Both the position numbers and the translations under genes were made by a program. From positions 1 through 45,673 of the IMG/VR virus record IMGVR_UViG_3300033067_001965: a stretch of 45,673 nucleotides of DNA, one strand, 5' to 3'. Shown here in pieces: positions 1 through 40,735 of the stretch. Source of the DNA: a virus (Duplodnaviria; Caudoviricetes). The notes under the pieces are model-generated. The model was not told where the DNA came from. It saw only the letters and a program-made list of their open reading frames with translations, and made no database searches. The number at the start of each line of letters is the position of its first letter. The first letter of the stretch is position 1.

Positions 1-69
1 ATTGACCGCATCCGTGAGGCTGGCTACGAAAAGGAAGCCGACAGGCTCACCAAGATCCTTGGTATGTGA
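1..69 (+). CDS. 3' end of a gene truncated by the window edge
   Basis: Frame 1 reads IDRIREAGYEKEADRLTKILGM to a TGA at 67-69, followed by a palindrome copy as at other gene junctions. Confidence 0.6.
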   Translation: MDRIREAGYEKEADRLTKILGM

Positions 70-125
70 CCCGCTCCAGGCAGCGCCCGCGCGGGCGCTG
101 CCTTTCTCTAACGCAAGGTGAAACG

Positions 126-974
126 ATGCTCGACTTGTCGCACGCTCCGAAGGATGCCAGAATCCAATCGTCCGCCCTGGGCGGGTGGGCTGTCGTCAAC
201 GCGGATTGTCTCTCCGATCCCTCGAAACAGAACCTTGACTACCCCAGTGATGCGGACCTATTTTTCTCCGATCCGCCCTACAACTTCGGGCTGGATTACG
301 GAGACGAGTTTGACGATAGCGTCTCCCGCCACCTTTACCGGGGTTGGCTTGACCGATTGATTTTCGCGGGCGCGGCAAGGCTCATGCCGGGTGGCGCGTT
401 TTGGATCTTACTCCCGGCCGAACACGCCGCGCATGCATTCGTGTACCTGGAGAAAGCGGACTTACTCTTTCGTAACTGGGTGGTCTGGCACGAAACCTTT
501 GGCGTCCAGACTTCAAGGAAGTTCGCGCGGTGTTCCCGACACTTGCTCTACTTTGTCAAGCAACACCCGGCCAGCGCCCGCGCGGGCGCTGGCAAGGCTC
601 CGGCTGCCTACTTTGACCCGACACACATTAAGGTTCAGAGCGTTCGGCAGATGATCGGAGACAAGCGGGCGAAACCGGGCGGCAAGATCCCTGGGGACGT
701 GTGGGAGATTCCCAGGGTGGCCGGTACGCACGCGGAGCGCTGCAAGGAAGTTCCGACGCAACTTCCGGAGGAGCTTTTGCGGCGGGTGGTCTTGTCCACA
801 TGCCCGCCCGCCGGGAAGGTTCTTGAGTTCTGCGCGGGTAGCGGGAGCCTGGGGCGGGTGTGTGTGGAGAACGGCCGCGCCTACGAAGGGTGGGAGATCT
901 CGCCGGTGTTTGCGGACGTTGCCGCGCGCCGAATCCGTGAACGCGAAATGGAACTTTTTGAGGGGAAGAAATGA
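126..974 (+). CDS. DNA N4-cytosine/N6-adenine methyltransferase (beta class)
   Basis: Catalytic SDPPY motif near the N-terminus and SAM-binding VLEFCAGSGS near the C-terminus. The ATG at 126 follows the recurrent AACGCAAGGTG RBS motif. Confidence 0.92.
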   Translation: MLDLSHAPKDARIQSSALGGWAVVNADCLSDPSKQNLDYPSDADLFFSDPPYNFGLDYGDEFDDSVSRHLYRGWLDRLIFAGAARLMPGGAFWILLPAEHAAHAFVYLEKADLLFRNWVVWHETFGVQTSRKFARCSRHLLYFVKQHPASARAGAGKAPAAYFDPTHIKVQSVRQMIGDKRAKPGGKIPGDVWEIPRVAGTHAERCKEVPTQLPEELLRRVVLSTCPPAGKVLEFCAGSGSLGRVCVENGRAYEGWEISPVFADVAARRIREREMELFEGKK

Positions 975-6026: not shown

Positions 6027-7187
6027 TCAGGGAGCAAGGGCATTGTAGTTACTTCTGTCCACTATTGCCAGCCTTGAATCATTAATTCCGAACCTCTTTT
6101 GAGGCTCCGCCATGGCCCAGTCAAGCGGCTTTCGCTCGAAACCCCCGATGCCATCGAACACCCAGGAATCACCCGCGTCAAGGATGCGTTGCATGGTCTG
6201 TTCAACGCACCAGAATGATCCTGAGGGCGGGTCTCCGGCTCCCTTCGGGCCACCTACCCAGTTCTCACCCCAGGAGTTCATAATACAAAACAGGTAGCCG
6301 CGCGTCGGGTGTTTCGCGTAGCCGATCAAGTGCATTTGGTGCGCCCACGTTCCTGACGCCCGCAAACACCCGTCTTGATCTCGGACGTATGGCCCGCGAT
6401 TCCCAAACCCGACGTTGCTTGCGATGGTGACGGAGAAGCCGTTAGCCAGGGCGCGGCGAACGTCTTCGGTTGTCCGGACCAGAGTCACGGAATTGGTCTT
6501 GTGCTTGGCGCACTCTTCCTTGATGTCTGCCGGAACCCCGGAGTCGCCCATTCGTCGGCATGTGGCTTGACTGTAGCTCGACAGGTCTACCGTCGCGTAT
6601 TTCTGGCGCGGCGCGAAACCGTATTTCTGGGCGGCTTGCGCGACACTGGAGCCGGTCGCGCCGTCAGACCCGCGCAGGACTCCACCCAGGACATCGACGC
6701 GGGCCAGACCGTACAAAGGCTCCGTCGCAAGCTCCCAGTAGTCCGGCGCGGGCTTCATCGCCTTTTTCGCCGTTACAATCCGAACGCAAAGTTGAATTCG
6801 GCCAGCCCCGACGCCACCGAAAGCCGTACACGATCCGACCGAACCTTGATCAAGCGTCGGCAGGTAGGAGCCAGTTGCCGCCTTGCAAATCTCCCACTGG
6901 AAAATCTTGTCGGGAAGGTTCGCATCGGCACCGGCCGGAGGCTGGGCGAATGTTGGGAACTGGAGGGTGGCGGCAAACTTGCGCACTTCCTCCGGCCGGT
7001 CTTCCCACCCCATCGGGCCAGGCGCGGCCGGTTGTGACTCAATGACAGGCGGTGGCGGGATCGGCTTCCCGTCACGAAGCGCGACGTACACGGTAACCGC
7101 CCACCCCGAGAGCGTCACCATTAGCGCGATGTAGTGCCAGTTACGGGCCAGCCACCCGGCCGGTTGCGGCGTCGGTGTCGGTTCCAT
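6027..7187 (-). CDS. Membrane-anchored papain-family (C1) cysteine peptidase
   Basis: DQGSVGSCTAF (Gln/Cys), AHQMHLIGY (His), MNSWGENW (Asn), and an N-terminal TM helix. Confidence 0.9.
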   Translation of the reverse strand: MEPTPTPQPAGWLARNWHYIALMVTLSGWAVTVYVALRDGKPIPPPPVIESQPAAPGPMGWEDRPEEVRKFAATLQFPTFAQPPAGADANLPDKIFQWEICKAATGSYLPTLDQGSVGSCTAFGGVGAGRIQLCVRIVTAKKAMKPAPDYWELATEPLYGLARVDVLGGVLRGSDGATGSSVAQAAQKYGFAPRQKYATVDLSSYSQATCRRMGDSGVPADIKEECAKHKTNSVTLVRTTEDVRRALANGFSVTIASNVGFGNRGPYVRDQDGCLRASGTWAHQMHLIGYAKHPTRGYLFCIMNSWGENWVGGPKGAGDPPSGSFWCVEQTMQRILDAGDSWVFDGIGGFERKPLDWAMAEPQKRFGINDSRLAIVDRSNYNALAP

Positions 7188-9318: not shown

Positions 9319-9963
9319 TTACCTAACCCTCTTGTAGATCGTCCACCAGTCGGGCGATGACTTGAACACCGTTTCACAAATTCCGTCCAGATACCTTACG
9401 GCGTCCTGGGTGGTGTCCCAATTCACGTCATCAAAAATCAGGTAGCCGCCCACCCGGAGCCGGTCGTACCATGTGATAGCATCTTGGAAGGATCTTGTAA
9501 CCGAATGGTTCCCGTCAATGTGGACGTAATCGAGCGATTGCGACTCAAACAGCGAAGCGGCGCACGCCGAAGGGGTACGGAGGATGGCCGCGTGATCCCC
9601 TAGCCCGTAGTGCTGGATGTGCGACAGCGCCCGCGCGTGAAGGTCTTCCCAGGGGACGTGAAGACCCCAATCGTTATGGTTCGCGCGGTCCTCGAATCCC
9701 TCAACCTGCCGCTTGGCATTGTACGGGTCAATGCCGACAATGAACGGGTTGAGGCAGTTCATATCCGTGATGACTGTCTTCTTGCTCGCCAGGGCGAAAG
9801 CCGCCGGGATAAGTGAGCGACCGGCAAAAACGCCGATCTCTACGCACCGGTTGATTTCTGGGTGCGTGCAAATCTCTACGATCTTCTGCGCCTTGTCCTC
9901 GGTACACCACCCGTCACTTTCGCGACAATAGAAGTCGCGCACCTTGTCCATGATCTCTGTCAT
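9319..9963 (-). CDS. Class I SAM-dependent methyltransferase (Methyltransf_24-like)
   Basis: VEIGVFAGRS, LDYVHIDGNH and GGYLIFDD motifs. Confidence 0.85.
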   Translation of the reverse strand: MTEIMDKVRDFYCRESDGWCTEDKAQKIVEICTHPEINRCVEIGVFAGRSLIPAAFALASKKTVITDMNCLNPFIVGIDPYNAKRQVEGFEDRANHNDWGLHVPWEDLHARALSHIQHYGLGDHAAILRTPSACAASLFESQSLDYVHIDGNHSVTRSFQDAITWYDRLRVGGYLIFDDVNWDTTQDAVRYLDGICETVFKSSPDWWTIYKRVR

Positions 9964-11084
9964 ACATGCACCATGAGGTTGGAAATTTCGTCGTGGGAAA
10001 ACTCGCCAAGAAGGATCTCGCTGTCTTGGTGGCCCGCACTGACGAACCAAGTTCCGTTCTCCAGGAACGCGCCGCACGGGTAGATGACGGTCTTGTCCGG
10101 GGTGACGTTCGCGCCGTCGGTCCTGGCGTCGGCTGCCCACACGCTCCCAGGGGTCATGCGCGTGATTCGCTCGGGGCCGAACTCATACACGCCCGTTGAA
10201 TAGGTGTAGTGGTTGCCGTCCCGCCGGTAGCCGTGGAACCAGTGCCACCACAGGTTTTCACCAACCTTGACGGGCGGCGCGCCGCCCCGAATCTCCCAGC
10301 CCTGCATTGACAGCGCCCGCGCGGGCGCTGTTCTCAACTCGCCGTTGCCGCCTGGGTGGAACGTGAACCGCTGAAACGGGCTTGAGCGATAGATTATGTC
10401 CAGTCCGGAGCCTGTGTCATACGGCATCCAGTTCTTTTCGATGCGCGACAGCTTGACCCCAGGAACACTTTCGAGCGTCCACTCTGAAAGCGGCAGCGCC
10501 CCCGATTGATCGGCCGCGATCCCAGGAACAGAAATGACTTGTCTGGTGTGGAGATCTCCGGAGACAATGGATAGACCGGCATATATCATGCCAAGCCTAC
10601 CATTTGCCAGAAATAAACGCGGGTCTTCCGCGCCGCATGAGACGCTAGGCACCGCCGGTTTGTACAGGTACGAAGCCAAAACCTCGAACGTGTCCGACAG
10701 GTTGGCAATACGAACGCTCGGCGCGTCTTCCCCGAGACCGTACCACCCGGATCGGTACGCCATGAGAAGCTTCCCCATGTGCCGAATCACGGAGCCGTTG
10801 AATACCCTTTGGCCTGGGAGAGTTGACGGAGCTACGATCCTGCGCACGCGATCCGGCGCGGCAATGGTGTAGTCGCGGCAGAAAGACCCGCAGCCCTTGC
10901 ACGAACAAACGATTTCACCAAGGGGCTTGTGAGGGCTGCCACACTTGACCCACTGCTTGACGGGGCTTTCCCCTGGGGGTGGCGCGCTGGGGCTGCCGCG
11001 CTCGATGCACAGTGGCAGCGCCCGCGCGGGCGCGGATGGTGAAGTGTTCGGCGCGGCCGCGCCGATAAGGGGGAGCTTTTTCAT
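9960..11084 (-). CDS. GH130/GH43-like five-bladed beta-propeller with an N-terminal Cys-rich segment
   Basis: FNGSV, EDPRLF, EKNWMP, IRGGAPP and VIYPCGA motifs. Confidence 0.7.
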   Translation of the reverse strand: MKKLPLIGAAAPNTSPSAPARALPLCIERGSPSAPPPGESPVKQWVKCGSPHKPLGEIVCSCKGCGSFCRDYTIAAPDRVRRIVAPSTLPGQRVFNGSVIRHMGKLLMAYRSGWYGLGEDAPSVRIANLSDTFEVLASYLYKPAVPSVSCGAEDPRLFLANGRLGMIYAGLSIVSGDLHTRQVISVPGIAADQSGALPLSEWTLESVPGVKLSRIEKNWMPYDTGSGLDIIYRSSPFQRFTFHPGGNGELRTAPARALSMQGWEIRGGAPPVKVGENLWWHWFHGYRRDGNHYTYSTGVYEFGPERITRMTPGSVWAADARTDGANVTPDKTVIYPCGAFLENGTWFVSAGHQDSEILLGEFSHDEISNLMVHV

Positions 11085-25924: not shown

Positions 25925-26767
25925 TCAAAAAGCGCCCGCGCGGGCGCTTTGTCGCATCGACTTCTGTTGGAACATATGAGCCATGTTTGCGGCCACTTGC
26001 CGAACGTCAACGGCGTTGTACATTCCGAATGATGCCAGAATGCCATTGGTCAGAGCAAGGTAAGCTTCGGCCGCTTGCATGAAGTCCAGGCTACCCGAGT
26101 ACCGGCTCGCCTGGGTGGGCTGTCCGGTAATCCGACGCTTCGCCCATGAGATAGCTTTACCCAGGATCTTCGTTCCGACGTTCAGGGCAAGGTGCGCGCT
26201 TACCCCGGTGGCGTCCTTGAGCGGGTCATAGGTGGCGTGTTCGGTGTTTCCGAAGCTCGGGTTATAGCCGATCTTCTGGAGGTCTTCCGGCCCCTCGAAA
26301 ATGGTTGTCCAGATGTTCAGGATTTGCGGCGCACGCATGGCCACGTCATACATGACCCGACGCGCGGCCGTTGCCGCTACATTGGTCGCATGCGCGACAG
26401 CTTGCGCCGCCCCCTTGACGCGCCCGCGCGGGCGCTTTTGCTTACTGGCTGACCCTCCAGAGGAAGCCCCTGGAGACGGGGCAAACTGGCCAGCGTTTCC
26501 GGGTTGACCCCGTGGGTGATCGGAGGGGTTGAAATCTGCGTAGACGGAGCGAGTAAAGCCGATCGCATATCCGCGATTGCTTGCTCGGTTTCTTCGGCGC
26601 TTGCCAGTCGATACCGGTTTGGTCGTCGCAGTGGGCACATAGGTATTACTACCTCCAGGATATCCCATGTATTGAGAATTCACAACTGGCTCTGAAATGC
26701 GCGCATCGCCGTGCATTCCGTTTGGGCCGGGAATTCTAATCTGAAACAGATCTTTTAGGAAGGCCAT
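25925..26767 (-). CDS. Putative internal or minor head protein
   Basis: Lies between portal and protease. Carries FNPSDHPRGQPGNAGQF and GYPGGSNTYVP motifs shared with the portal and capsid. Confidence 0.6.
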   Translation of the reverse strand: MAFLKDLFQIRIPGPNGMHGDARISEPVVNSQYMGYPGGSNTYVPTATTKPVSTGKRRRNRASNRGYAIGFTRSVYADFNPSDHPRGQPGNAGQFAPSPGASSGGSASKQKRPRGRVKGAAQAVAHATNVAATAARRVMYDVAMRAPQILNIWTTIFEGPEDLQKIGYNPSFGNTEHATYDPLKDATGVSAHLALNVGTKILGKAISWAKRRITGQPTQASRYSGSLDFMQAAEAYLALTNGILASFGMYNAVDVRQVAANMAHMFQQKSMRQSARAGAF

Positions 26768-29316
26768 AGCCCTAGATCCATGAAGAATTTTGATGCGTTC
26801 GGGAACTTCTGGGCAACGTCCTGCGGGTTCGCTTCCGGGTCGTATACCAGACGGCAGAACTCAGCGAATCCCTCTTTTGGATTCGTCCTGGCGTAGCTGG
26901 ATAATGGCGACTCTGGAGTGTCGATATCCATAGCATTCGCCATCGACCATTCATGAGACATTGATAGCTCATGATTTGGCCCGTCTATGGCGTGCCCTAG
27001 CTCGTGCGCGTAAACCCCAGTTGAGTCGGGGTCATCATTTCCATCTAGAACTAACTCGCCAGCGCCGGGATTCCAGAAACCGCTAATCGTTGCCGCGCCG
27101 GACCATACTCGGGCTATCAAATCCCCGTGCGTTGGGTCAACACCAACAGCTTGAGCCAGGGCTACAAACTCGTCTCCAACCTCACTGTAATCGGTCTTGA
27201 AGTTGAACGATTTTACATTTTGTGCGATCCTATCGACGGCAGCAGACGGCATCTTGTGCATTGCCTGCCTGATACTCTGCCTCATGTTCCTTGCAGTAGC
27301 ATGGTCAATCCCGGCCGATTGCATCTGTGCATCCGCAAACGAAGCAACCTGATCGTGGGCCGGCGTCCTGCCTTTATTCATCTTAGGATAAGACTGAGAA
27401 GTCTTTGCGGATCGTGCCGATCCTGATTTCTGGGATCTATTCTCCCGCGTCTTTGCGACTCGGTTTGCCGGTCTGCCTGACGGATTACCGGCAGCTTGGG
27501 CGCGAGATTTCGGTTGCCATCCAATCGGTACACTTCCGCCTTGACCCTTTGGGGCAAACCACCCAGCGTTACTAGGATGCCCCCGTGGATGCTTGCTTGC
27601 GTCCCATGCGTACCAATTCAAACCATCGAAGTAACTAATCATCCCGGTTTGGGATCTGTGGAACATTGTTGGCCCGCGCCCGCGCGGGCGCTGTGGCACT
27701 CGGTTCATTGTTGGATTGTTATTGTGGCTACCAATACCCGGCCTCGCTGGTAGCTGCGGACGTTGCATCCGAGTAGATGGCCCACCCATGCCTTGCCCTG
27801 GCTGCGGACCACCGGGAGCGCCGCCCATTCCCCCCATACCAGGAGCGCCACCCATTCCAGGAGCGCCACCCGGAGGCATCACCGGTTGAAGTCCCAGAAC
27901 CTCATCACCCGGTTCCGGTCGCGAGTATCCGCCCGCTTCGCGGAACTCGTCTGCCTTGATGGGGCAACCGGCCTGGATGAGCTTTACCCCGGCCTCAACC
28001 TTCTTTGTCTTCTCCGGGTCTGGGAGCAACGACTTGAACCGAACGGGGAAATCGGCCCAGGGATAGTTGTACTTCTTGACGACTGATAGGTAGTCGTCGG
28101 TCATTGTCGAGTCGAGCGCGCCCGCCGACGCCACAAGGATTTCGTCCTTGGTGGCCATCGCCATAGCCACCCGCCCCGAGTCGCCAAGTCCGCCCTTGGT
28201 GTCTCCCCCGTCGCCCATCACTTGGCCCGTGATGAGTACCTTGATGTGGCGGTCAAAGTAGTTGCTAACGAGTTCATGCAGCGCCTTAAGCCCGCTCTCA
28301 TTCATCTTGATTTGTTCGACGGGGGGATAGTTGCTCCCCTTCTGGCGCGGGCAAAGGATCACGGCTTTGCCGATGACCCGGTTGGCGTTAATGGTCTGTT
28401 GCTTGAAGTCCGCGTTATTGCCGCTCTCATAATTGAAAACGAGCAAATCCATTTGCCCAACCGACTGCATGTAGGCGAGCATCCAGGTAAGCGCGTCGGT
28501 GCGGATGGCGTATTGCCAGTAGACCAGACCCCGCAAGCCAAGACCCTGGACACTACCGGCAAGCTCACCCTCGAAAAAGTCGGCCTTCTGGATGAGCCAT
28601 TGGTGAATGGCGTAGCGATCCCTCCAGAACGGCTTTTGCAACACCAGCGCCATGCCGCCCCGGTCAGTGGCCCGAATGTCTCCCTCTGGCCCGACCGAAG
28701 CGCCGTGCTGGGCGTACCAACCGGCCGTTGCCGAGTCAATAAGGATTGCGGGAACTCCGTCAAAGGTGAACTGGATGGAATCGCCGTGTACCGGTGTCCA
28801 CTCCTTCCCGATTGCCCAGGCTCCGCCGATTTCCTTGTCTCGCTTGAGCCGCCACTGAACACCGCCACGACCCCACCACTCGCCCATGAGGAGCGCCCTG
28901 CGAAACTGGTCGAATCGCTTGATTCGCTGTGTGATCTTGGTGAGACCGTCAAGGACTTGCTTTTGGTGCGGGTCTTGCGGGTTATCAACTTCAAGCTGCC
29001 ACTTGCGGTTGATCGTCGGCGTCCATCGCTCCTCAAGTTGCCCCAGGATGAAGCCGTCGCGCAGCATGCTACGCGCGTTCTGGATGCTGTCCCGCATCGC
29101 TTCATCAAAGCGATACGAATATACTCGGGTAACCGCGTTCACGACTTGGGAGAAGTCCCGCGCCGGGGGGACGAGGAAGCCGTCTTTACCCAGGATCGGC
29201 GTACCGTCAGGGAGCCGCATTTGCGTCGGCGGAACCTGGAGGGGTTGACCCGGCCTGTGAACCTGGAAGCCCTGTAGGTCGCCAGGGTTGTACATGCTAT
29301 CGTTCCAAGCTGGCAT
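26755..29316 (-). CDS. Portal protein (Mu gp29/DUF935-like) fused to a C-terminal HExxH zinc metallopeptidase domain
   Basis: G.GLR..VYW and IKVLITGQ portal motifs, a G/P/M linker, then YAHELGHAID...SSYARTNPKEGFAE. Confidence 0.8.
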   Translation of the reverse strand: MPAWNDSMYNPGDLQGFQVHRPGQPLQVPPTQMRLPDGTPILGKDGFLVPPARDFSQVVNAVTRVYSYRFDEAMRDSIQNARSMLRDGFILGQLEERWTPTINRKWQLEVDNPQDPHQKQVLDGLTKITQRIKRFDQFRRALLMGEWWGRGGVQWRLKRDKEIGGAWAIGKEWTPVHGDSIQFTFDGVPAILIDSATAGWYAQHGASVGPEGDIRATDRGGMALVLQKPFWRDRYAIHQWLIQKADFFEGELAGSVQGLGLRGLVYWQYAIRTDALTWMLAYMQSVGQMDLLVFNYESGNNADFKQQTINANRVIGKAVILCPRQKGSNYPPVEQIKMNESGLKALHELVSNYFDRHIKVLITGQVMGDGGDTKGGLGDSGRVAMAMATKDEILVASAGALDSTMTDDYLSVVKKYNYPWADFPVRFKSLLPDPEKTKKVEAGVKLIQAGCPIKADEFREAGGYSRPEPGDEVLGLQPVMPPGGAPGMGGAPGMGGMGGAPGGPQPGQGMGGPSTRMQRPQLPARPGIGSHNNNPTMNRVPQRPRGRGPTMFHRSQTGMISYFDGLNWYAWDASKHPRGHPSNAGWFAPKGQGGSVPIGWQPKSRAQAAGNPSGRPANRVAKTRENRSQKSGSARSAKTSQSYPKMNKGRTPAHDQVASFADAQMQSAGIDHATARNMRQSIRQAMHKMPSAAVDRIAQNVKSFNFKTDYSEVGDEFVALAQAVGVDPTHGDLIARVWSGAATISGFWNPGAGELVLDGNDDPDSTGVYAHELGHAIDGPNHELSMSHEWSMANAMDIDTPESPLSSYARTNPKEGFAEFCRLVYDPEANPQDVAQKFPNASKFFMDLGLWPS

Positions 29317-30504: not shown

Positions 30505-32559
30505 TTACTCTAGCCTGATTCCCGTGGCAATATCAGTGTCGCGGATTGTGTGCAAACGCACGTTAGATTCGCGGTTGTCCATCTGACGGGTAACCCATTC
30601 GTCTGACAGGATCTTGAGCGTACAGTGCGTGTCATCAACCCCGAGCGCGAGTAGCCACTGACCGGCAGCGTACACGGCACCACCCGGCCACACCACCCCG
30701 TTCTTAATCACCTTCTCCCCCGGTCCTGGGGCGGTTGGCCAGATGATCGGCACGGGGGTTTGACGGATGACACGGTAGGGCTTCCGCTCCTCGAAATCCA
30801 GCGCGCCAACCGTGTAGATATTTCCCGAATTCTTTTTCAAGCATCCGTGAAAGAACATGCGGAAATATCCGTCACGGCGAACCGGACAGGCTCCGCCACG
30901 GATGACGCCACCCGCCCAGGGGAGCGGGTTCGGGGTCTTGTGGACATCGGGGCCATCGAACACGATGTGAGACGGAGACCACTGGTATCCAATCTTAATT
31001 GCAGTGTCAACCGAATCGTCCCAACTCACGAACGGCATCCAGTTTTTTTCGTAGGCGCTACCCACTGGCGACTTGTATACCTGTGTCGCTTCGATGCGCT
31101 TGAGATCCCGCGAGAACATCACCATGCCCATTGATACCGTCTTCGCGGGGTAGCCGTTGGGGATGGAGACCATTGCGGCCAACCGCCACTCAACAACCTT
31201 CTCCCCGCTGGCGATGTCGTCAACCACGAACGGCGCGTAGAACGCTCGCGGGTCTTCCATGCGAGTGACTTCCGTCATGTTCGATCCACACGAGCTAATC
31301 GGCCGCACGCTCCACGTACCTTCCCAGTCTTTCGGGTCAAGTGTCGCGCCCGCGCGGGCGCTGTTCTTGAGTTCCCACACACCAATCTTGGAGTGTCCCC
31401 AGCCGTCACGGGTCAAGAGAATGAGACTGTCTCCAACGCGACAGATTGACGGGTTGAAATGCCCTTCCGGGAGCGGCAAGCGGTCCCGGGGCTGCGGGCT
31501 GGCCGGTAGCGCGTTACGCTCCGTGCAAAACTTGCAGTCGATCACGGGGAATCCGCTTACGGCCGTGTTCGCCTTGTCCGGTACGTCCCGGTGGTGGCAC
31601 AGCGCGCCGTACCTCCCGCACATGGACGTTGGAATGTTGCGCCCGCTCGGCCCGTGTACGGCAACCTCTTGCGTGATCTCACCCCGGTACATGCAGCCGT
31701 AGGGGTCAAGCACGGAGAGCGTAGCTTGCGCGTCCTTCCACTGCTGTTCCGGGTCTTGGCTTCCCGTGCGGGCGCTGGCAAGCTCGCTTTCGGTGGCCGC
31801 AAGTCCTGGAGTCGTTGGCCTGGGTGCGTCGGAAACGTCGATACAGGACGGTTCCCATTCGGGCTTGCCACTGTCGGAAAGCCCGTCAGCGTATGCGTAG
31901 GTGCGCTGTCGGACGAGTGACGGCAGGTACGCGCCCCATTTGATGATACCCGGCCGTAGCACACGCTCGAATAGCTGTTGATCCATGTTTTTTTCGGCCA
32001 CGGTCATACAGTTGGACATTGCCCACAGTCCCGACGATCCGCGCCGGAGGTTGAGAGCGTAAGCGTGCGTGCCGAACGGGTAGTCAAGGTGGCAATACGG
32101 GCTGTCCGGACCACCGACGCGACCGCTGACTTTGTTCCAAACCGCCGGTTCTTGCTCGGCAAGACCCAGGAAGAGAAGATCCCAGTTCTTCTGCCGCTCC
32201 GTGAATCCGTCGATGATGTCACACACCCGATTTGCGTAGTCGCTCGGCAAGCTCACGTCATCCTCGAACACGATCACCACGTCTGAGCCGTGGCTGATAT
32301 TCTTCTGTTCCTCCAGCAAGTGTTGCCAGAGCGCCCAGTGGGTCATGTTGAGCGCGACGTGTCCCGGTTCGATCCGTTTCCCCGCGTCGTATTCCTTGGT
32401 GGTCTCAATGCCCCAAGTTTTGCCGTGGAACGCTCGCCAGAACCGCCAGTCGAGAACGTACTTGCCCAGTGGTGTCGAGTCGCGAACCGCGTTCAAATGC
32501 TCGGCACACTTTACCTTGCGGTCGGGTAGCTCGTCACAGGCAATTACATAGTGTCGCAT
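30505..32559 (-). CDS. GT25-like glycosyltransferase fused to a Cys-rich linker and a GH130-like beta-propeller
   Basis: H..LW..L, VIVFEDDV, WDLLFLG and GTHAYAL, followed by FNPSI, EDPR, EKNWMPF, IRGG and VVWPGGA. Confidence 0.8.
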   Translation of the reverse strand: MRHYVIACDELPDRKVKCAEHLNAVRDSTPLGKYVLDWRFWRAFHGKTWGIETTKEYDAGKRIEPGHVALNMTHWALWQHLLEEQKNISHGSDVVIVFEDDVSLPSDYANRVCDIIDGFTERQKNWDLLFLGLAEQEPAVWNKVSGRVGGPDSPYCHLDYPFGTHAYALNLRRGSSGLWAMSNCMTVAEKNMDQQLFERVLRPGIIKWGAYLPSLVRQRTYAYADGLSDSGKPEWEPSCIDVSDAPRPTTPGLAATESELASARTGSQDPEQQWKDAQATLSVLDPYGCMYRGEITQEVAVHGPSGRNIPTSMCGRYGALCHHRDVPDKANTAVSGFPVIDCKFCTERNALPASPQPRDRLPLPEGHFNPSICRVGDSLILLTRDGWGHSKIGVWELKNSARAGATLDPKDWEGTWSVRPISSCGSNMTEVTRMEDPRAFYAPFVVDDIASGEKVVEWRLAAMVSIPNGYPAKTVSMGMVMFSRDLKRIEATQVYKSPVGSAYEKNWMPFVSWDDSVDTAIKIGYQWSPSHIVFDGPDVHKTPNPLPWAGGVIRGGACPVRRDGYFRMFFHGCLKKNSGNIYTVGALDFEERKPYRVIRQTPVPIIWPTAPGPGEKVIKNGVVWPGGAVYAAGQWLLALGVDDTHCTLKILSDEWVTRQMDNRESNVRLHTIRDTDIATGIRLE

Positions 32560-32579
32560 TAGATAGACTCCGGTTAGTG

Positions 32580-35051
32580 TTACAGTGGCTTTCGCGCCCG
32601 CGCGGGCGCTGGTACTCTCTCGGGTGTTTGACTGCCAACCGCCCATGATGTACGGCTTGACGTGTCCCCCAGTACGGCCGTCATCATGGTGGTTGATTTG
32701 TAGTGTGAGATTACGAATGCGTCGGCGTCGTCTGGGCTGCGCCGCAACCGCTTCTTGAAGTCCTTCTTGCTCTCTACGCGGGTACGGCCAACAAGAACCT
32801 GATAGCTCGGGGCAAGTAGCTGGAAGCGGAGGCGCGTGAGAACGTCTCCGCTGAGGCGCGAAACGTCAATGCATCCGCACCGCGCCAAGTCGCGGGCGTT
32901 GAACCACATCTCTGAGCGCCGGTCGGTGTAGTGCTGGGGATCGTCGGCGCGCTCGCTGACGATTAGACCCATCCAGTTCCACCCGTCGTTGAGTGAGTAC
33001 ACACCAACCCCAGGCCCGTCCATTTCGATGATCGTTAGCACTTCCTCCGGCCGAAGCGGTGGCCGGTCATCGGTGGCCAGGGAGTTGTAGTATTGTGCGT
33101 AGGTCTCGGACAACATGCGGATGTGTTCGGCGGTGCGATTGGGTAGCCAACCGTTCCGGTACTCATGGTGTACGGAGACTCCCCCGATGCGAACATGAAA
33201 GCAACTGTCATCGTCACCATAGGTAGCGACATCAACCCCGATGGTGACTCCGCTCCCGCGCTGCCACTCGGCATAGAGGTTTCCCCGTGGGTTGGTCATT
33301 GCGGCCCATTCAAGTTCGCTGAAGATGGTATCTACGCCCGACGTTGGGCGTAGACCCATCGCGCGGCACTTGAACAGCGGCCCCGGTCTTATCCAGGTTC
33401 CTCCCCCAATGTACCCGCTTCCGTGACAGCGCGGACAAGGGCAATCCCCGGACAGTGCTGGTACGCCTCCGGCATGTCCTTGCTCTCCACTCGGACAATC
33501 AGTTTCGGGTTGAACCCGTCCAGCATCAGCCGTTCCATCTTGCACAGCGCCGATGAAAGATTGCTCACTTCCTCCGCGATCCCCGCTTGCTTGCTCTGTA
33601 CCCGGTAGCCCTTGACGTTCTCCACTCGGGGGAACCAGTTCATTGTCGCTTCCGTTTGCATCGTCCACAGCCGAAACGGAACGTACCGGCTCATCATGTG
33701 GGCGCACGATACCCGGAACTCCTGGAGATCCGCCGATTCCCAGACCTGGAGTTCCCCCGCCCGATCCTCCCACTCGAATCGGCAGGGCTGAATCTGGTAG
33801 GTCTTGACCGGGTTGACCGCTTCCAGGGACATCGGCCCTGGGAAGTGTTGCACCACCCCGTTGAGACAGTCCTCCGCGCTGATGTGCTTCTCGGTCAGCA
33901 TCTCCGCGAATCGCTTCGTTACGTCCATCATGGACATTTGGAACTTGGTCGCAAAGTGATACCAGTGGAGTTTCCAGGTTCTCGCGTGGACGAATGTCAT
34001 CGTGTGGAGGAACCCGCGCCGACAGGATTCCTCCGTCTTCGGCGCTTGGCCTTCCGCCTTCAGCCACTTTTTCAACCGGTCTTTCTCGCTCATGATCCCG
34101 TTCCTTCTCTCTGGGTGTTGAGGCGTCAGCCTCAGTGATGGATTGGGGGTCTCCCCCAATCCCCGCGCCCGCGCGGGCGCAGTCAGGGCACTCTAGACGC
34201 GGAGGAAATTCCACGTCTGATTCCAGGCGGTCTGCCGCGTGGGGAACCGGTGTAGTCCAGTCCTGTACCCACTGCCGAACCATCGGCAGCGTAACGGCCG
34301 ATGGGATGGGCGCAGGTTTCCCAAGTAGCTGCGCCCGGATGTTTGGATGGTTGAGTGAAGATAGCGTGTGTAGCTTCCACTTGGGGCTACCGTCCGGGTT
34401 ACAGGCTAGATCCTCAATGTAGCTCTGTGAGGATGTGGTTAGCGGGTTGCCGACGACAAGGACCGCGTGCCCTTGGTCCGGCTGGTACATCGTATCTAAG
34501 CTTGTCCAATAGTGCGAGTCTATGCCCTCGGATTCATCGAAGACAAAAAGCATGTACGCGCGGTGGCGACCGTGAAAACTTTCGCTTTTGCGCGCCGTGT
34601 ACCCCTTTGCCCAGTGTTCGGGGCTGGAGTACATCTCTGGCGCTCGCGGGCCAGAGAAATTACTCGGCAGGTTCGCGCGGATGCGTTGGAGCCGTATTTC
34701 CGTCCACAGCAAGTCTATCACGTCCCGTTCCGTGGGCGCGGTGGTGATGATAACCCCAGGGTCTCGGGTATCCCACCACCAGTTGACGATTGCCGCGCAG
34801 ACGGACGTTTTGCCGACACTGTGGCCGCTGTTCACCTTGACGCGGCCCGGCATGTCTGCCGCGATCTTGGCTTGATCCTCCGTAAGCGTCATCTTGAGTA
34901 CATTGGCAATGTAACCAAGGGGATCATCCCGGTACACTTTGGCGATGTCGTCCGACTGGGGCCTTGTGACGTATTCGGCAATGGCGCGGAGCGGCAGCCG
35001 CTTCCGCAGCGCCCTGGCAATCGCCCGTGCAAGCCCGTTACTCTCGCCCAT
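32580..35051 (-). CDS. terL: Terminase large subunit with an ~265-aa insertion
   Basis: Walker A SGHSVGKT, Walker B FVFDESE, coupling motif VGNP, and nuclease motifs IGVDVATYGDD and SPDDADA. Confidence 0.92.
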   Translation of the reverse strand: MGESNGLARAIARALRKRLPLRAIAEYVTRPQSDDIAKVYRDDPLGYIANVLKMTLTEDQAKIAADMPGRVKVNSGHSVGKTSVCAAIVNWWWDTRDPGVIITTAPTERDVIDLLWTEIRLQRIRANLPSNFSGPRAPEMYSSPEHWAKGYTARKSESFHGRHRAYMLFVFDESEGIDSHYWTSLDTMYQPDQGHAVLVVGNPLTTSSQSYIEDLACNPDGSPKWKLHTLSSLNHPNIRAQLLGKPAPIPSAVTLPMVRQWVQDWTTPVPHAADRLESDVEFPPRLECPDCARAGAGIGGDPQSITEADASTPREKERDHERERPVEKVAEGGRPSAEDGGILSARVPPHDDIRPRENLETPLVSLCDQVPNVHDGRNEAIRGDADREAHQRGGLSQRGGATLPRADVPGSGQPGQDLPDSALPIRVGGSGGGTPGLGIGGSPGVPGIVRPHDEPVRSVSAVDDANGSDNELVPPSGERQGLPGTEQASGDRGGSEQSFIGAVQDGTADAGRVQPETDCPSGEQGHAGGVPALSGDCPCPRCHGSGYIGGGTWIRPGPLFKCRAMGLRPTSGVDTIFSELEWAAMTNPRGNLYAEWQRGSGVTIGVDVATYGDDDSCFHVRIGGVSVHHEYRNGWLPNRTAEHIRMLSETYAQYYNSLATDDRPPLRPEEVLTIIEMDGPGVGVYSLNDGWNWMGLIVSERADDPQHYTDRRSEMWFNARDLARCGCIDVSRLSGDVLTRLRFQLLAPSYQVLVGRTRVESKKDFKKRLRRSPDDADAFVISHYKSTTMMTAVLGDTSSRTSWAVGSQTPERVPAPARARKPL
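33389..34093 (-). CDS. Nested 234-aa protein in an alternative frame inside terL
   Basis: AGAAGGA RBS plus ATG. Globular-protein composition, whereas the terL frame here is low-complexity. Confidence 0.65.
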   Translation of the reverse strand: MSEKDRLKKWLKAEGQAPKTEESCRRGFLHTMTFVHARTWKLHWYHFATKFQMSMMDVTKRFAEMLTEKHISAEDCLNGVVQHFPGPMSLEAVNPVKTYQIQPCRFEWEDRAGELQVWESADLQEFRVSCAHMMSRYVPFRLWTMQTEATMNWFPRVENVKGYRVQSKQAGIAEEVSNLSSALCKMERLMLDGFNPKLIVRVESKDMPEAYQHCPGIALVRAVTEAGTLGEEPG

Positions 35052-35052
35052 A

Positions 35053-35421
35053 TCAGAGCGCCCGCGCGGGCGCTTCCTCTGTCGTTCGTTTGACCCGGTT
35101 ATTGATTCCCCGTAACCCGAGCTTGGAGATCTTGACCAGCACGGCTTTCGGGGTTCGGTTCAGGGCGCGGGCAATCAGGCACACTTTGACTTTGCCCACG
35201 TTCTGACGCATGTACTCCGTCTCCTGCGCCGTCCATCTCCTTTGCGTGAGCTTGATCTCGTGTCGCCTGCGCGCGTGATGCGCCGCGTTGTAGACGGCGT
35301 TCTCGCTGGCCCCCGTTCTCCTGGCGATGTCCCTAACCAGCCTCTTGCGGTCGCATCGCCGTAAGTCGGGGTCAATCACCCCCAGGAGATCGAAGTAGTT
35401 CCGCCCGTCCCTCCAGTTCAC
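35053..35421 (-). CDS. Myb/HTH-like DNA-binding protein
   Basis: RRWTAQETEYM...IARALNRTPKAV. GTGA coupling to the upstream gene. Confidence 0.7.
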   Translation of the reverse strand: MNWRDGRNYFDLLGVIDPDLRRCDRKRLVRDIARRTGASENAVYNAAHHARRRHEIKLTQRRWTAQETEYMRQNVGKVKVCLIARALNRTPKAVLVKISKLGLRGINNRVKRTTEEAPARAL

Positions 35422-35891
35422 ACGCAAATTCTTGGTGGTAGCGGGATCTCCACTCCCACGATCCGCCACAGGTGAAGCGCCGTTGAGTGATCCCTCACAT
35501 ACTGACTCTCTGGCGGGTGGTACTGGATGACGCATTCTTCCGGCTCCCACAGAAGTTCTTTGACAAAGCACATTTCAAGCCACGTCGGACAGGTTCCGGC
35601 GCTCACGGATGCGTGTTCAAAGACCGGTGGCGGGAGTACCGTGCCTGGGGGGAAGTCCTTCCATTTCTCCTCTAGGCTCTTGAGAATCGCGGGGTTGGCT
35701 TTGGCCGCAATCGCCAAGATGTCGGCGCGGGGCTTCTCCACAGGCTCAAACCAATCCCGCCCGTCGCTTGCAATGATATTGAGCGTGCGAGACAGGACGG
35801 GGCACAGAACCTTGAAGTGTCCATACGGGCCAGTTCCGGGTTGACCGGTCACCCGGCCGCGCTCCAGAACGTCTGAGAGAACCTTACGCAT
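35418..35891 (-). CDS. Conserved phage protein of unknown function
   Basis: EHASVS..CPTW.EMCFVK...IQYHPP..Y...H..LHLW motif, which I recall as common in phages. Confidence 0.75.
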   Translation of the reverse strand: MRKVLSDVLERGRVTGQPGTGPYGHFKVLCPVLSRTLNIIASDGRDWFEPVEKPRADILAIAAKANPAILKSLEEKWKDFPPGTVLPPPVFEHASVSAGTCPTWLEMCFVKELLWEPEECVIQYHPPESQYVRDHSTALHLWRIVGVEIPLPPRICV

Positions 35892-35947
35892 GATAGACTC
35901 CAGGGGTTGGGTGAGACAGCGCCCGCGCGGGCGCTGTCCATTGATGC

Positions 35948-36190
35948 TCAAGCAATCGGCTGGATTTCCGAAAACCGCTCCGTCTCCGGGTTGAACCAAA
36001 CAACTCCAGTAACAAAGTCACCATCGTAGCTGTACCCGCCCATCGCGTAGGCGATACACCCGGACCACCCAAGCGGCGGGTTGGCATAGGCACAAGTAGA
36101 CCATGCCTTTCCCAGTGTGTAGAAGTGCGTCATGTGCATCGGGTGTGCGTCGTGATACAGCTTAACTACGCGATCTTGTGAAGCAACCAT
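35948..36190 (-). CDS. Hypothetical protein
   Basis: Preceded by AACCCCAAACGCAAGGTG. Confidence 0.65.
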   Translation of the reverse strand: MVASQDRVVKLYHDAHPMHMTHFYTLGKAWSTCAYANPPLGWSGCIAYAMGGYSYDGDFVTGVVWFNPETERFSEIQPIA

Positions 36191-36455: not shown

Positions 36456-36565
36456 CGTGTCACCTTGCGTTTGGGGTTTCGTCGCGTCAGGCTCGTTTGC
36501 CTGACACTGGAATAATACCCCCGTCCGCGCGGATGTCAACACGAATTGGAAAAGTTTTTCGGATT
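36456..36565 (-). promoter_or_regulatory. Early promoter/stem-loop/RBS cassette, copy B
   Basis: TTGACA(36539)-16 nt-TATTAT(36517), hairpin GTCAGGC/GCCTGAC, then GCGACGAAACCCCAAACGCAAGGTGACACG-ATG. Confidence 0.85.
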
Positions 36566-37266
36566 TAGTTTTCGCTCCGGAAATCGGTCCTGTCCCTGGG
36601 TACTCGCCTCTCGGGTGGCAAGATCTCCAGGAGCTTACGCGCGGCCGCTTGCTCCGCCCGCTCTGCCGCGATCTTCGCCAGGGCTTCCGGCATCTGTCCG
36701 GAAAGCTCCTTCGTGATTTCGCGTTGCAGGTAAGGCGGCAACTGGTTCAACAACTCTTCCAGTGGCGTCGGGTCTTTGAGTAGACCGAAGTGTTTCAGCA
36801 TCTTGTCAAGAGCCTGGAGCTTGTCGTAGAACTTGTATTCCACAACCGATTCCGTTACCGTCACGGAGTCTTCCCCGTTCTCGCGCGTTACCGTCCGCTG
36901 ACGCATCACCTTTGTTGAGGCAATGGCCCGCCGCGCGTTCATGCCGATCCTGTGAATGGGCAAGAGGCAGCCGTTTTCGTCCACAAGCTCCAGGGGATCG
37001 GCAAACGCGATCCTGGCAAGCTCCATTAGTGCCCTGTCGGACGAAAGCCGCGTCCGTGCTTTTTGGTCCGCGCCCTCTTTCGCCAGGGCTTCCCGGATTG
37101 CCGGGTTGTTCTTGAGTAGGACACGCGCCGCGTTGTAAGCGCTCTGCCGCGTCACCCCTGGGTACGCTTCCATGTAAGCGCGCGTGCGCTGACCGTGGAA
37201 CAGGAGCCGTTCAATAAAGGTCTGCCACTCCCGGCGGAGCGGCTTCGGTTGCTTTGTCTTTGCCAT
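36565..37266 (-). CDS. terS: Terminase small subunit
   Basis: TRAYMEAYP...A...A..LL..P.I, ELARIAFAD and DKLQALDKMLKHFG motifs. Confidence 0.85.
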   Translation of the reverse strand: MAKTKQPKPLRREWQTFIERLLFHGQRTRAYMEAYPGVTRQSAYNAARVLLKNNPAIREALAKEGADQKARTRLSSDRALMELARIAFADPLELVDENGCLLPIHRIGMNARRAIASTKVMRQRTVTRENGEDSVTVTESVVEYKFYDKLQALDKMLKHFGLLKDPTPLEELLNQLPPYLQREITKELSGQMPEALAKIAAERAEQAAARKLLEILPPERRVPRDRTDFRSEN

Positions 37267-37334
37267 GTCCTTGACTCCAAACAGTCGGGCGGTTGGCATT
37301 GTAGCACGCGCCCGCGCGGGCGCGTAGCTGATTT

Positions 37335-37730
37335 TTAAGGGAAGACCCAATTTGTAGGGATCGTCATAACCCCCAGGCGGGTGGCAAGCCGGTGCATGAT
37401 TTGAGCCGCCGAGAGACTAAGCGAATCCCCGGATGAGAGTTCCACCGGGTTAATCTCAACGGCAGCATGGGGCAACTGGGCAAGCCACCATTTGACGCTC
37501 GCAGCCGTCATGATTTGGGAAATGGGAACAGCGAGCTTACCGTCATCCGTTCCGCTCTCAATGATGTCGTATAGACTTCGGAGGTTCGGCCCGATGCTGA
37601 ACCGGTAAACGTAGACTTCGCTATCCGGCTTCCTGGGATCGGCCAAACACTCGTCAATACGAATCAGGATCTTGGCGGGCGGGAAGCTGTTGGAAAATGG
37701 AACGTCCGTCAGTGTGTTTTCGCTTTGCAT
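37335..37730 (-). CDS. Hypothetical protein
   Basis: AGGAG RBS, flanked by palindrome copies. Confidence 0.65.
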   Translation of the reverse strand: MQSENTLTDVPFSNSFPPAKILIRIDECLADPRKPDSEVYVYRFSIGPNLRSLYDIIESGTDDGKLAVPISQIMTAASVKWWLAQLPHAAVEINPVELSSGDSLSLSAAQIMHRLATRLGVMTIPTNWVFP

Positions 37731-39598: not shown

Positions 39599-40735
39599 TC
39601 ACTCGGCGGAAGCGTCCTTGGTATTGTCCTTGCTGCCCTCGAATGACTTTTCGGCGGCAAGCCCCTTCATCGTGTCTTCAAGATCCTGGAACGCATCCAG
39701 GAGCCGCCCCAGGACCGTCAGGCGGTGCTGACCAAACTCGTCTGTCTGGATGTCAAAGCCGAACTTCTCTAAGCTGGCGCGAGCGTGCGGCGCGAGATCC
39801 GCACGGGTCAAGCTCGATTCGACCAACCGCGCCAGGTTGCCGACGATCCCACGGGTAACTTTGGGAAGACCCGTATCAGAGATCTTGGCGATTTGCGCGG
39901 CCCGCGCTTCGGCTTCCACTTGCTCCGGGGTCTTTCCGTCCGCGTTCGCGGCGCTCGTGGGCTTGTCGGCCCCTTCCGTCAAGCTCGGGTCATCCGCCAC
40001 GGGCGCGGCGGCTTCCTTTGTCACCTTCACGAGCTTGCCACCCCGGAGGGATTGCCCGCGCTCCTCCAGGGCACGCCACAGCGCCCCAGTCGAAGCCCCC
40101 ACCGCAGCCGCCGCGGCGCGCTGACCGCCCACCTTGCAGACTTCCGCGAGAAGGTCCGCATCATCCAGGAGCGTATTGATCGCCTTGCGAACGTCCCTGT
40201 CGGTGCGGGTCTTCCCGTGTGCGGCGTTCTGGCGCAGCGCCCATTTCTTCGCTTCCCTTTCCGTCATCTTCCAAACGATGACCGGAACGTCCTTGATCTT
40301 CGCCTTTTCGTAAGCCGCACCGCGATTGAACCCCGAGAAGACAACCTTCTTGACCCCGGTGTCTGCGACGTAGAGCGGCGGGAAGACCACCCCATCGGTC
40401 ATGAGTTCCGCGTATCTCGTCGCGGTGTCTTCGTTGACCAGTTCCGCGCGCATCTGGTACGCGCCGTCAAAGGTCAATTCCTTCCACGGCAACACCAGAT
40501 GCTCGCCACCCTCCGGGCACTCGGCGCGGGAGATCGTGTCTTCCTTCTTGCCGCCCTTCTTGCCGCCCTTGGCAGCTTCGGCCGGTTGCTCCGTGGCGTC
40601 GGTCTTGGTTTCCCGGATCTCAACCGGGAACGGGTTCGCATCGCTACCCGCGTTCACCAAGCTAAACGTCTCGTTGCCGTCGATGACTTCGTTTTGCACG
40701 TTCGATTCCTTGTTGTTCTTTTTCGACTTCGCCAT
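39599..40735 (-). CDS. ParB/Srx-like N-terminal domain protein with an HTH
   Basis: YQMR...YAELM..G..FPPL.V...VFSGFNR.AA...N..HG, followed by the HTH-like QRAAAAAVGASTGAL. Confidence 0.8.
   Translation of the reverse strand: MAKSKKNNKESNVQNEVIDGNETFSLVNAGSDANPFPVEIRETKTDATEQPAEAAKGGKKGGKKEDTISRAECPEGGEHLVLPWKELTFDGAYQMRAELVNEDTATRYAELMTDGVVFPPLYVADTGVKKVVFSGFNRGAAYEKAKIKDVPVIVWKMTEREAKKWALRQNAAHGKTRTDRDVRKAINTLLDDADLLAEVCKVGGQRAAAAAVGASTGALWRALEERGQSLRGGKLVKVTKEAAAPVADDPSLTEGADKPTSAANADGKTPEQVEAEARAAQIAKISDTGLPKVTRGIVGNLARLVESSLTRADLAPHARASLEKFGFDIQTDEFGQHRLTVLGRLLDAFQDLEDTMKGLAAEKSFEGSKDNTKDASAE

Follow-up and report, generated by a model that had tools for sequence, protein, structure and literature searches.

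An in-frame insert with a nested reading frame in terL

The window analyzed here is a 45,673-nucleotide stretch of viral DNA (Duplodnaviria; Caudoviricetes; positions 1 to 45,673 of IMG/VR record IMGVR_UViG_3300033067_001965), in which the gene for the terminase large subunit, terL, carries a long in-frame insert with a second open reading frame (ORF) nested on the same strand (Table 1). The gene is the sole terL copy within the virus record, which is 69% complete, and its motifs are intact, among them GHSVGKT (34826-34806) and MLFVFDE (34553-34533), which we take to be Walker A and Walker B. An initial annotation, made from the sequence alone, had described about 265 codons of low-complexity sequence bracketed by CPDC and CPRCHGSG, and comparison with relatives agrees closely with it, placing the insert at 264 codons. 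The loop peptide between the two motifs contains 43 glycines and 26 prolines, with a single aromatic residue. The same-strand ORF of 234 aa with its own ribosome-binding site (RBS), also described at that stage, was recovered in the +1 frame relative to terL; it lies wholly inside terL, starts at its own ATG with an AAGGA 8 nt upstream, has 218 of its codons within the loop, and runs with the remainder over conserved terL, inside which it stops (33389).

Misassembly or a chimera, a concern raised with the initial annotation, is extremely unlikely at this locus. The record is metagenome-derived and of low depth, and the sole contig spanning the gene, 5,959 bp long, may itself be the source of the window record, a point against the locus as assembled. 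That contig covers the whole of terL with no joints or indels, its two differences both lying outside the insert; a second sample yielded a 453-bp contig that falls within the insert and is identical, and a separate, independent 1,172-bp contig encodes the same nested ORF, with one upstream difference that is silent in terL by codon reading. Coverage in runs X3 and X4 was too thin for use. The same architecture is also found in unrelated records.

Codon usage distinguishes the two frames. In the inner frame, GC content by codon position is 0.58/0.40/0.78 and the codon score is +0.21, within the range of 30 genes of the genome (0.10-0.38); the loop in the terL frame gives 0.79/0.57/0.42 and a codon score of -0.10. 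Among 18 long genes scanned, this loop is the only place where a stop-free alternative frame outscores the annotated one. Since the inner frame uses codons as genes do and the case is the only such one in the 18 genes, the DNA appears to have been shaped as the inner gene, with the terL-frame peptide as its by-product; the description of the nested gene as overprinted therefore had the direction reversed.

That both frames stay open over such a distance is more than chance. When the nested protein was redrawn with synonymous codons, the terL frame was stop-free in 14 of 20,000 redraws, with a mean of 6.7 stops expected, and T-ending codons occur at 0 of 34 stop-making sites vs. 14 of 116 sites elsewhere (p=0.04). 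The openness statistic taken alone overstates the case, as openness is what drew attention to the window, and the remaining support comes from recurrence among relatives (see below). The nested protein has a language-model recognition value of 2394, which is reached by 91 of 100 real proteins and 9 of 100 shuffled ones.

Table 1 Features of the terL locus, in window coordinates.
Feature	Position	Strand	Basis or remark
terL, terminase large subunit	32580..35051	-	823 aa, single open frame; phrog_2 E 1e-15 and structure matches
terL ATPase domain as far as EFPP	34200..35051	-	
In-frame insert, TerL residues 285-548, 264 codons, in the presumed ATPase lid	33408..34199	-	Comparison with relatives reading E[WF]PP-GSG-xW
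CPDC, residues 288-291, first half of predicted zinc site	34179..34190	-	Zinc binding predicted from the motif
16-bp palindrome GCGCCCGCGCGGGCGC	34165..34180	.	One of 44 exact genome copies; reads ARAGA in the terL frame
10-bp hairpin, middle of three adjacent in the inner-gene leader	34140..34162	-	z -3.1
10-nt direct repeat, 5' copy, forming the 5' arm of the hairpin	34151..34160	-	
AAGGA, RBS-like, 8 nt upstream of the inner ATG	34102..34106	-	Sequence
Nested cargo ORF, 234 aa, ATG 34093 to TAA 33389	33389..34093	-	+1 frame relative to terL
terL-frame loop, 247 codons between CPDC and CPRCHGSG	33438..34178	-	G/P/A/D/R-rich, predicted disordered
CPRCHGSG, residues 539-546, second half of predicted zinc site	33414..33437	-	Zinc binding predicted from the motif
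10-nt direct repeat, 3' copy, 750 nt downstream	33401..33410	-	In the terL frame
TerL nuclease domain, about residues 572-790	32682..33338	-	8dkr_B Z 22.9, root-mean-square deviation (rmsd) 2.3, 196 aligned
Terminase small subunit ORF, upstream of terL	36565..37350	-	PF03592 E 8e-17

The cysteine bracket and its cargoes among TerL relatives

Recurrence was assessed in 119 relatives (the best 120 of 165 matches, the window included). The same CxxC...CxxC bracket is present at the same site in 6 of them, and the insert is absent from 113. Relatives read E[WF]PP-GSG-xW-xRPGP at this position, where a 117-row alignment contains 103 rows with 2-4 residues, 4 rows with 9-12 residues and no cysteines, and 10 rows with the cysteine bracket. 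The 9-12-aa cysteine-free insertions that P0079, P0112, and P0073 carry at the same hairpin are a further sign of a permissive site. A junction profile identified five further bracket proteins among 8,000 candidates scored, and a DNA-pattern search uncovered a fragment, L011, in which the bracket holds a 10-residue loop. Matches in the DNA-pattern scans were mostly due to chance, with true terL junctions numbering 1/1, 2/11, 1/5, 1/1 (same record), and 0/3; one contig-edge fragment (L012) was excluded from later counts. Searches for related loci returned none in some cases and four loci in another, one of which contains the insert.

The bracket is spread over at least five TerL lineages, with loops of 10, 16, 45, 57-101, 80, and 247 aa at the site and smallest inserts of 27 and 33 codons. 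Twelve TerL proteins from five lineages, together with fragment L011, retain the four cysteines and their flanking spacing (PP-to-CxxC spacing of 3 in 12/12 proteins, CxxC-to-W spacing of 10 in 11/12); the intervening loop varies freely, and loops of different lineages share no sequence. Junction DNA of the window, relative L015, and L011 differs at synonymous positions, which indicates that the protein motif, not the DNA, is conserved. On a tree of 32 rows (the 12 with the bracket plus 20 chosen relatives), the trait requires five changes, and a single clade is rejected (approximately unbiased test, p-AU 4e-13). Sisters of P0046 and P0111 that are 84% and 88% identical lack the module, and their flanks are near-identical up to the junction, so that gain or loss appears to be quick and precise.

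A structure model of TerL built from 117 aligned rows places 485 residues at a predicted local distance difference test score (pLDDT) of at least 90 and the loop (308-527) below 50, and it predicts short strands on either side of the bracket (286-287, 547-548, and 553-556). The ATPase domain of P74-26 (3-253) aligns to TerL residues 41-569 (Z 20.9, rmsd 3.2, 216 aligned) and the nuclease alignment spans 572-790, which puts the insert within the ATPase domain, ahead of the final helix, and not between the ATPase and the nuclease-proximal part as first described. We take this region to be the ATPase lid. The lid is described as a cap over the active site and has been proposed as the element that delivers force (PMC5389665, PMC5727402).

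CPDC and CPRC are predicted to bind one zinc at the base of the loop, which would place the zinc site on the tip of a beta-hairpin within the presumed lid. The closest family match for the motif is anti-TRAP RtpA (NF058604, E 0.74, below the cut-off). When held against the DnaJ type, the second half (CPRCHGSG) fits CxxCxGxG and the first half (CPDCARAG) has no xGxG tail, leaving one such repeat in place of two. A complex prediction with the two flanks and zinc scored 0.16 (mark 0.32) and provides no evidence either way.

Large intein-like inserts also occur elsewhere in TerL (P0111, P0128, P0069, P0078, P0093, P0104), and P0111 and P0128 combine one beside Walker A with the zinc bracket. It is conceivable, although very improbable, that the window's TerL is fully translated and its loop then excised or clipped from the protein, with the zinc site holding the halves together: a long disordered loop would be protease-sensitive, and members of the TerL family carry inteins at other sites, with PF14528 present in those of P0078, P0093, and P0104. 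Inteins start with C, S, or T and end in (H)N, followed by C, S, or T. The insert here has ends reading RLE...GYI, with no Hint domain and no Pfam match at E up to 1, and the loops have no common sequence across lineages.

Among the long-loop relatives, the single one with DNA (L003/L015) has GAGGAG and an ATG directly after the first CxxC, followed by a 119-aa +1 ORF that ends inside conserved terL. Its cargo ORF (L015:4878-5237) contains a 153-nt internal repeat, suggesting growth through in-frame duplication; loops in the clade measure 57-101 aa, and the clade's cargoes are very small. A likeness between the window and L015 cargoes, noticed by eye, was rejected (best E 3.5), and the cargoes are unrelated; a search with the L015 cargo returned only itself, along with a DUF7542 match below the cut-off (E 0.05). 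Across the bracket proteins, a +1 site capable of encoding GGAG plus ATG lies 5-7 residues past the first CxxC in 9 of 12, vs. 7-17% in shuffles. The start signal is kept in 8/8 members of the clade although the residues there differ, and changes in the clade's loop core are more radical than those in the TerL body (mean BLOSUM -0.67 vs. 0.07).

A read-through loop and its alternatives

Together these results favor, with a probability that we place at about 0.72, a reading in which terL is translated straight through the insert as a disordered, zinc-clamped loop, and a +1-frame cargo gene in the same DNA is translated from its own start. A small zinc ribbon with a loop of 10-16 aa, as in L011 and P0038, would cap the WPP-GSG-xW hairpin. 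Once the loop is closed by zinc, neither its length nor its sequence would matter any longer for TerL folding, and its content would be extruded and disordered, such that genes landing with a length divisible by three and without a terL-frame stop could be tolerated. Selection on TerL would then keep the terL frame open and remove frameshifts, thereby shielding the cargo, which would be translated from its own RBS and co-expressed on the packaging-gene message. No sigma-70-like promoter was found in 32400-35300. Different terL alleles may acquire or lose the module, for which recombination at the conserved WPP and RPGP codons is the most likely route. The likeliest role of the cargo is that of a late-expressed accessory protein. 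The original proposal, that placing the gene in a zinc-clamped loop allows TerL to keep folding, is thus supported, with the zinc predicted, by the cysteines and spacing kept in five lineages, by a model that folds around a disordered loop, and by the purging of stops.

Several observations weigh against this reading. A homologue search returned only the window cargo itself among 184 candidates, and a search of 1.84 billion representatives returned itself and a 44-aa match in a 3,249-aa protein, which was rejected as repeat-driven; there was likewise no match in Pfam, PHROGs, NCBIfam, PADLOC, Atlas, or 50,697 phage records. Because no homologue was found, selection on the window cargo protein is unmeasurable. 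Openness of the +1 frame is less telling than that of the terL frame, as it was retained in 2,281 of 20,000 redraws of the loop peptide (11%), and in L015 the terL frame was open in 4,925 of 20,000 redraws, within chance. The inner GC content at third codon positions in L015 (0.77) is lower than that of its terL body (0.96). The start-site matches comprise all eight clade members and P0046, that is, two lineages only, with no near match in P0111 and none in P0038, and the start in the window, some 28 codons in, escapes the rule. Within the eight-member clade, first-position-only changes number 22 of 43 vs. 115 of 327 in the TerL body, a difference that is not significant (Fisher p=0.27, single-base classes). 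The comparison at DNA level covers two long-loop cases, including the window, and those relatives that were found as proteins are preselected for an open frame, so that split versions would escape. Finally, zinc binding is predicted from the four invariant cysteines, the motif, and its spacing.

Alternatively, the inner ORF may be a silent or dead relic of coding DNA that landed in a tolerated, read-through loop and is neither expressed nor selected any more, an explanation that the lack of homologues, the open +1 frame, and the clade substitution test favor, together with a weak RBS (AAGGA) and a single-sequence structure model with a pLDDT of only 35. The globular appearance first described for the nested protein could not be shown. 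We nevertheless consider a relic unlikely, since the codon score falls within the range of real genes, the language model recognizes the protein, the start signal is kept throughout the clade, and a useless 247-aa loop would be expected to shrink. The initial annotation had named a nested ORF lacking homologues or expression, with selection only on the terL frame, as an outcome that would speak against it; this outcome is half borne out, as no homologue was found. The window cargo has no second copy in its own record or in four related records. No homing endonuclease domain (HNH, GIY-YIG, LAGLIDADG, or related) was matched in the inner ORF by Pfam, PHROGs, or NCBIfam, although a novel nuclease fold would escape these.

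The leader of the inner gene contains three adjacent hairpins, the third at 34134-34119, and the exact 10-nt repeat lies in frame near both ends of the insert. Such a repeat was found in 22 of 20,000 random window pairs, the windows having been picked post hoc. Base pairing of the downstream copy with the 3' arm of the hairpin at 34140-34162 is also possible. These elements might allow the insert to be removed from the RNA or skipped by the ribosome, yielding a TerL of normal length, an alternative entertained in the initial annotation. In the T4 gene 60 bypass, a GGA take-off site reportedly sits at the top of a hairpin, with a matching landing codon, a stop directly after take-off, and a gap of about 50 nt. 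The GGA codon of the window's repeat is likewise at the top of the hairpin and is present in both copies, but no stop follows the take-off codon, the frame being open, and the gap is 750 nt. A hop would moreover drop the second CxxC and leave the other unpaired. Stops are purged through the entire loop, which a skipped insert would have no need to lose, and this makes removal or bypass less likely than first allowed. The 10-nt repeat is absent at the L015 junctions, the smallest inserts are those of 27 and 33 codons noted above, and no group I or II intron core was matched in Rfam at E up to 5 across 32000-36000, in keeping with the initial statement that neither intein nor intron hallmarks are visible. 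Weighing both sides, removal or hopping is decidedly improbable. As to an excising element, the repeat is internal to the cysteine bracket, unlike att repeats, and the Pfam search gave no integrase match. An intein, an Rfam intron, a gene 60-type bypass, and an excising satellite of the helper-embedded phage-inducible chromosomal island (HE-PICI) type were therefore all rejected, each failing a defining test.

Comparison with known systems

With terL read through and the cargo translated from its own start, the locus is likely a natural alternate-frame insertion, in which an extra gene is tucked inside an essential gene without splicing. The closest parallel is engineered: in overlapping alternate-frame insertion (OAFI), an inner gene that has its own RBS and from which outer-frame stops have been removed is placed in a tolerant loop of the outer protein (10.1101/2024.11.07.622342). 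The window's inner gene similarly has its own RBS, no outer-frame stops, and an insertion-tolerant loop, as judged from loops of 10-247 aa at one site and the loop's pLDDT below 50. Unlike OAFI, the terL case is natural, affects an essential motor, has a predicted zinc clamp at the base of the loop, uses the opposite frame offset, and involves several cargoes. The parts of the OAFI paper that were covered name no natural case of this build (10.1101/2024.11.07.622342).

As with gene E inside D of phiX174, one gene lies wholly within another. Disorder in one frame eases the double constraint in nested viral overlaps, and overprinting creates a new ORF through substitutions in outer-gene DNA that was already coding (PMC8227390). 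The terL case differs from overprinting in that the DNA is inserted, the inner frame looks original, and the cargo differs between lineages. A partial DnaJ zinc domain, an insertion of CxxCxGxG type, is described in the DNA polymerase of HMO-2011-type phages, and the accessible part of that report mentions no cargo (PMC9038755). Unlike in this polymerase motif and in anti-TRAP RtpA, the TerL motif has the xGxG tail on the second half only and 10-247 residues between its halves, and the module is patchily distributed and contains a second gene. Inteins, group I and II introns, and the helper-embedded satellites in terL also place foreign DNA at a fixed site and leave the enzyme working (PMC10111431). 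These elements remove themselves from protein, RNA, or DNA, whereas the terL insert likely stays, looped out by folding. A literature search found no description of a nested gene or zinc-clamped insert in terL, with most subscription papers and bioRxiv supplements outside its reach.

More speculatively, and with considerable doubt, the insert may represent a mobile "zinc-clamped cassette", a third way, beside introns and inteins, of harmless insertion into an essential gene. The constant part of such a cassette would be the split CxxC...CxxCxGxG protein motif only, with repeated precise entry at the terL WPP/RPGP hairpin, neutralization by folding, and swappable genes shielded from frameshift.

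If the read-through reading is correct, the locus would be a natural counterpart to OAFI, known so far as a synthetic design, and a gene overlap that arose by insertion instead of overprinting. Loops of 10, 16, 45, 57-101, and 247 aa at a single site in five lineages would form a series on which the origin and growth of an overlap could be tested directly. The locus would also mark a site that tolerates large inserts in the lid of the packaging motor, the part proposed to deliver force (PMC5389665), and it serves as a warning that a low-complexity insert in a phage enzyme may conceal an unannotated gene.

The genome-wide palindrome and neighboring genes

The initial annotation had the insert opening with a palindrome and a hairpin. 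Both are present, but the insert starts at 34199 and the palindrome follows the first CxxC; with 44 copies genome-wide, GCGCCCGCGCGGGCGC was rejected as an insert-specific signal. The exact copies are distributed between positions 83 and 45243 of the window at a mean spacing of 1,050 nt (largest gap 2,021, coefficient of variation 0.45), and 0 of 10,000 random placements were as even. Many copies lie directly before a start codon and some lie in frame within genes, and none was found in the 22 foreign loci compared. The copies are likely a protein-binding or protection site, to which a ParB-like or methylase protein might be related: a weak ParB-N match (E 0.009) was found at 39599-40735 (-), and an N6/N4 DNA methylase (E 7e-28) is encoded at 66-974 (+).

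Elsewhere in the window, the portal protein (26755-29316, -; PF06074 E 3e-23) has a long C-terminal extension, the end of which weakly matches PF07737 (E 0.04, below the cut-off) and is possibly a fused metallopeptidase-like domain. Directly after terL, a 713-aa ORF (30505-32646, -) has weak GT25 and GH130 matches and is glycan-related, and a second GH130-like protein is encoded at 9960-11084 (-; E 5e-10). A papain-family protease (6027-7187, -; E 4e-5) and a DUF7694 protein (35418-35891, -; E 4e-20) were also identified.

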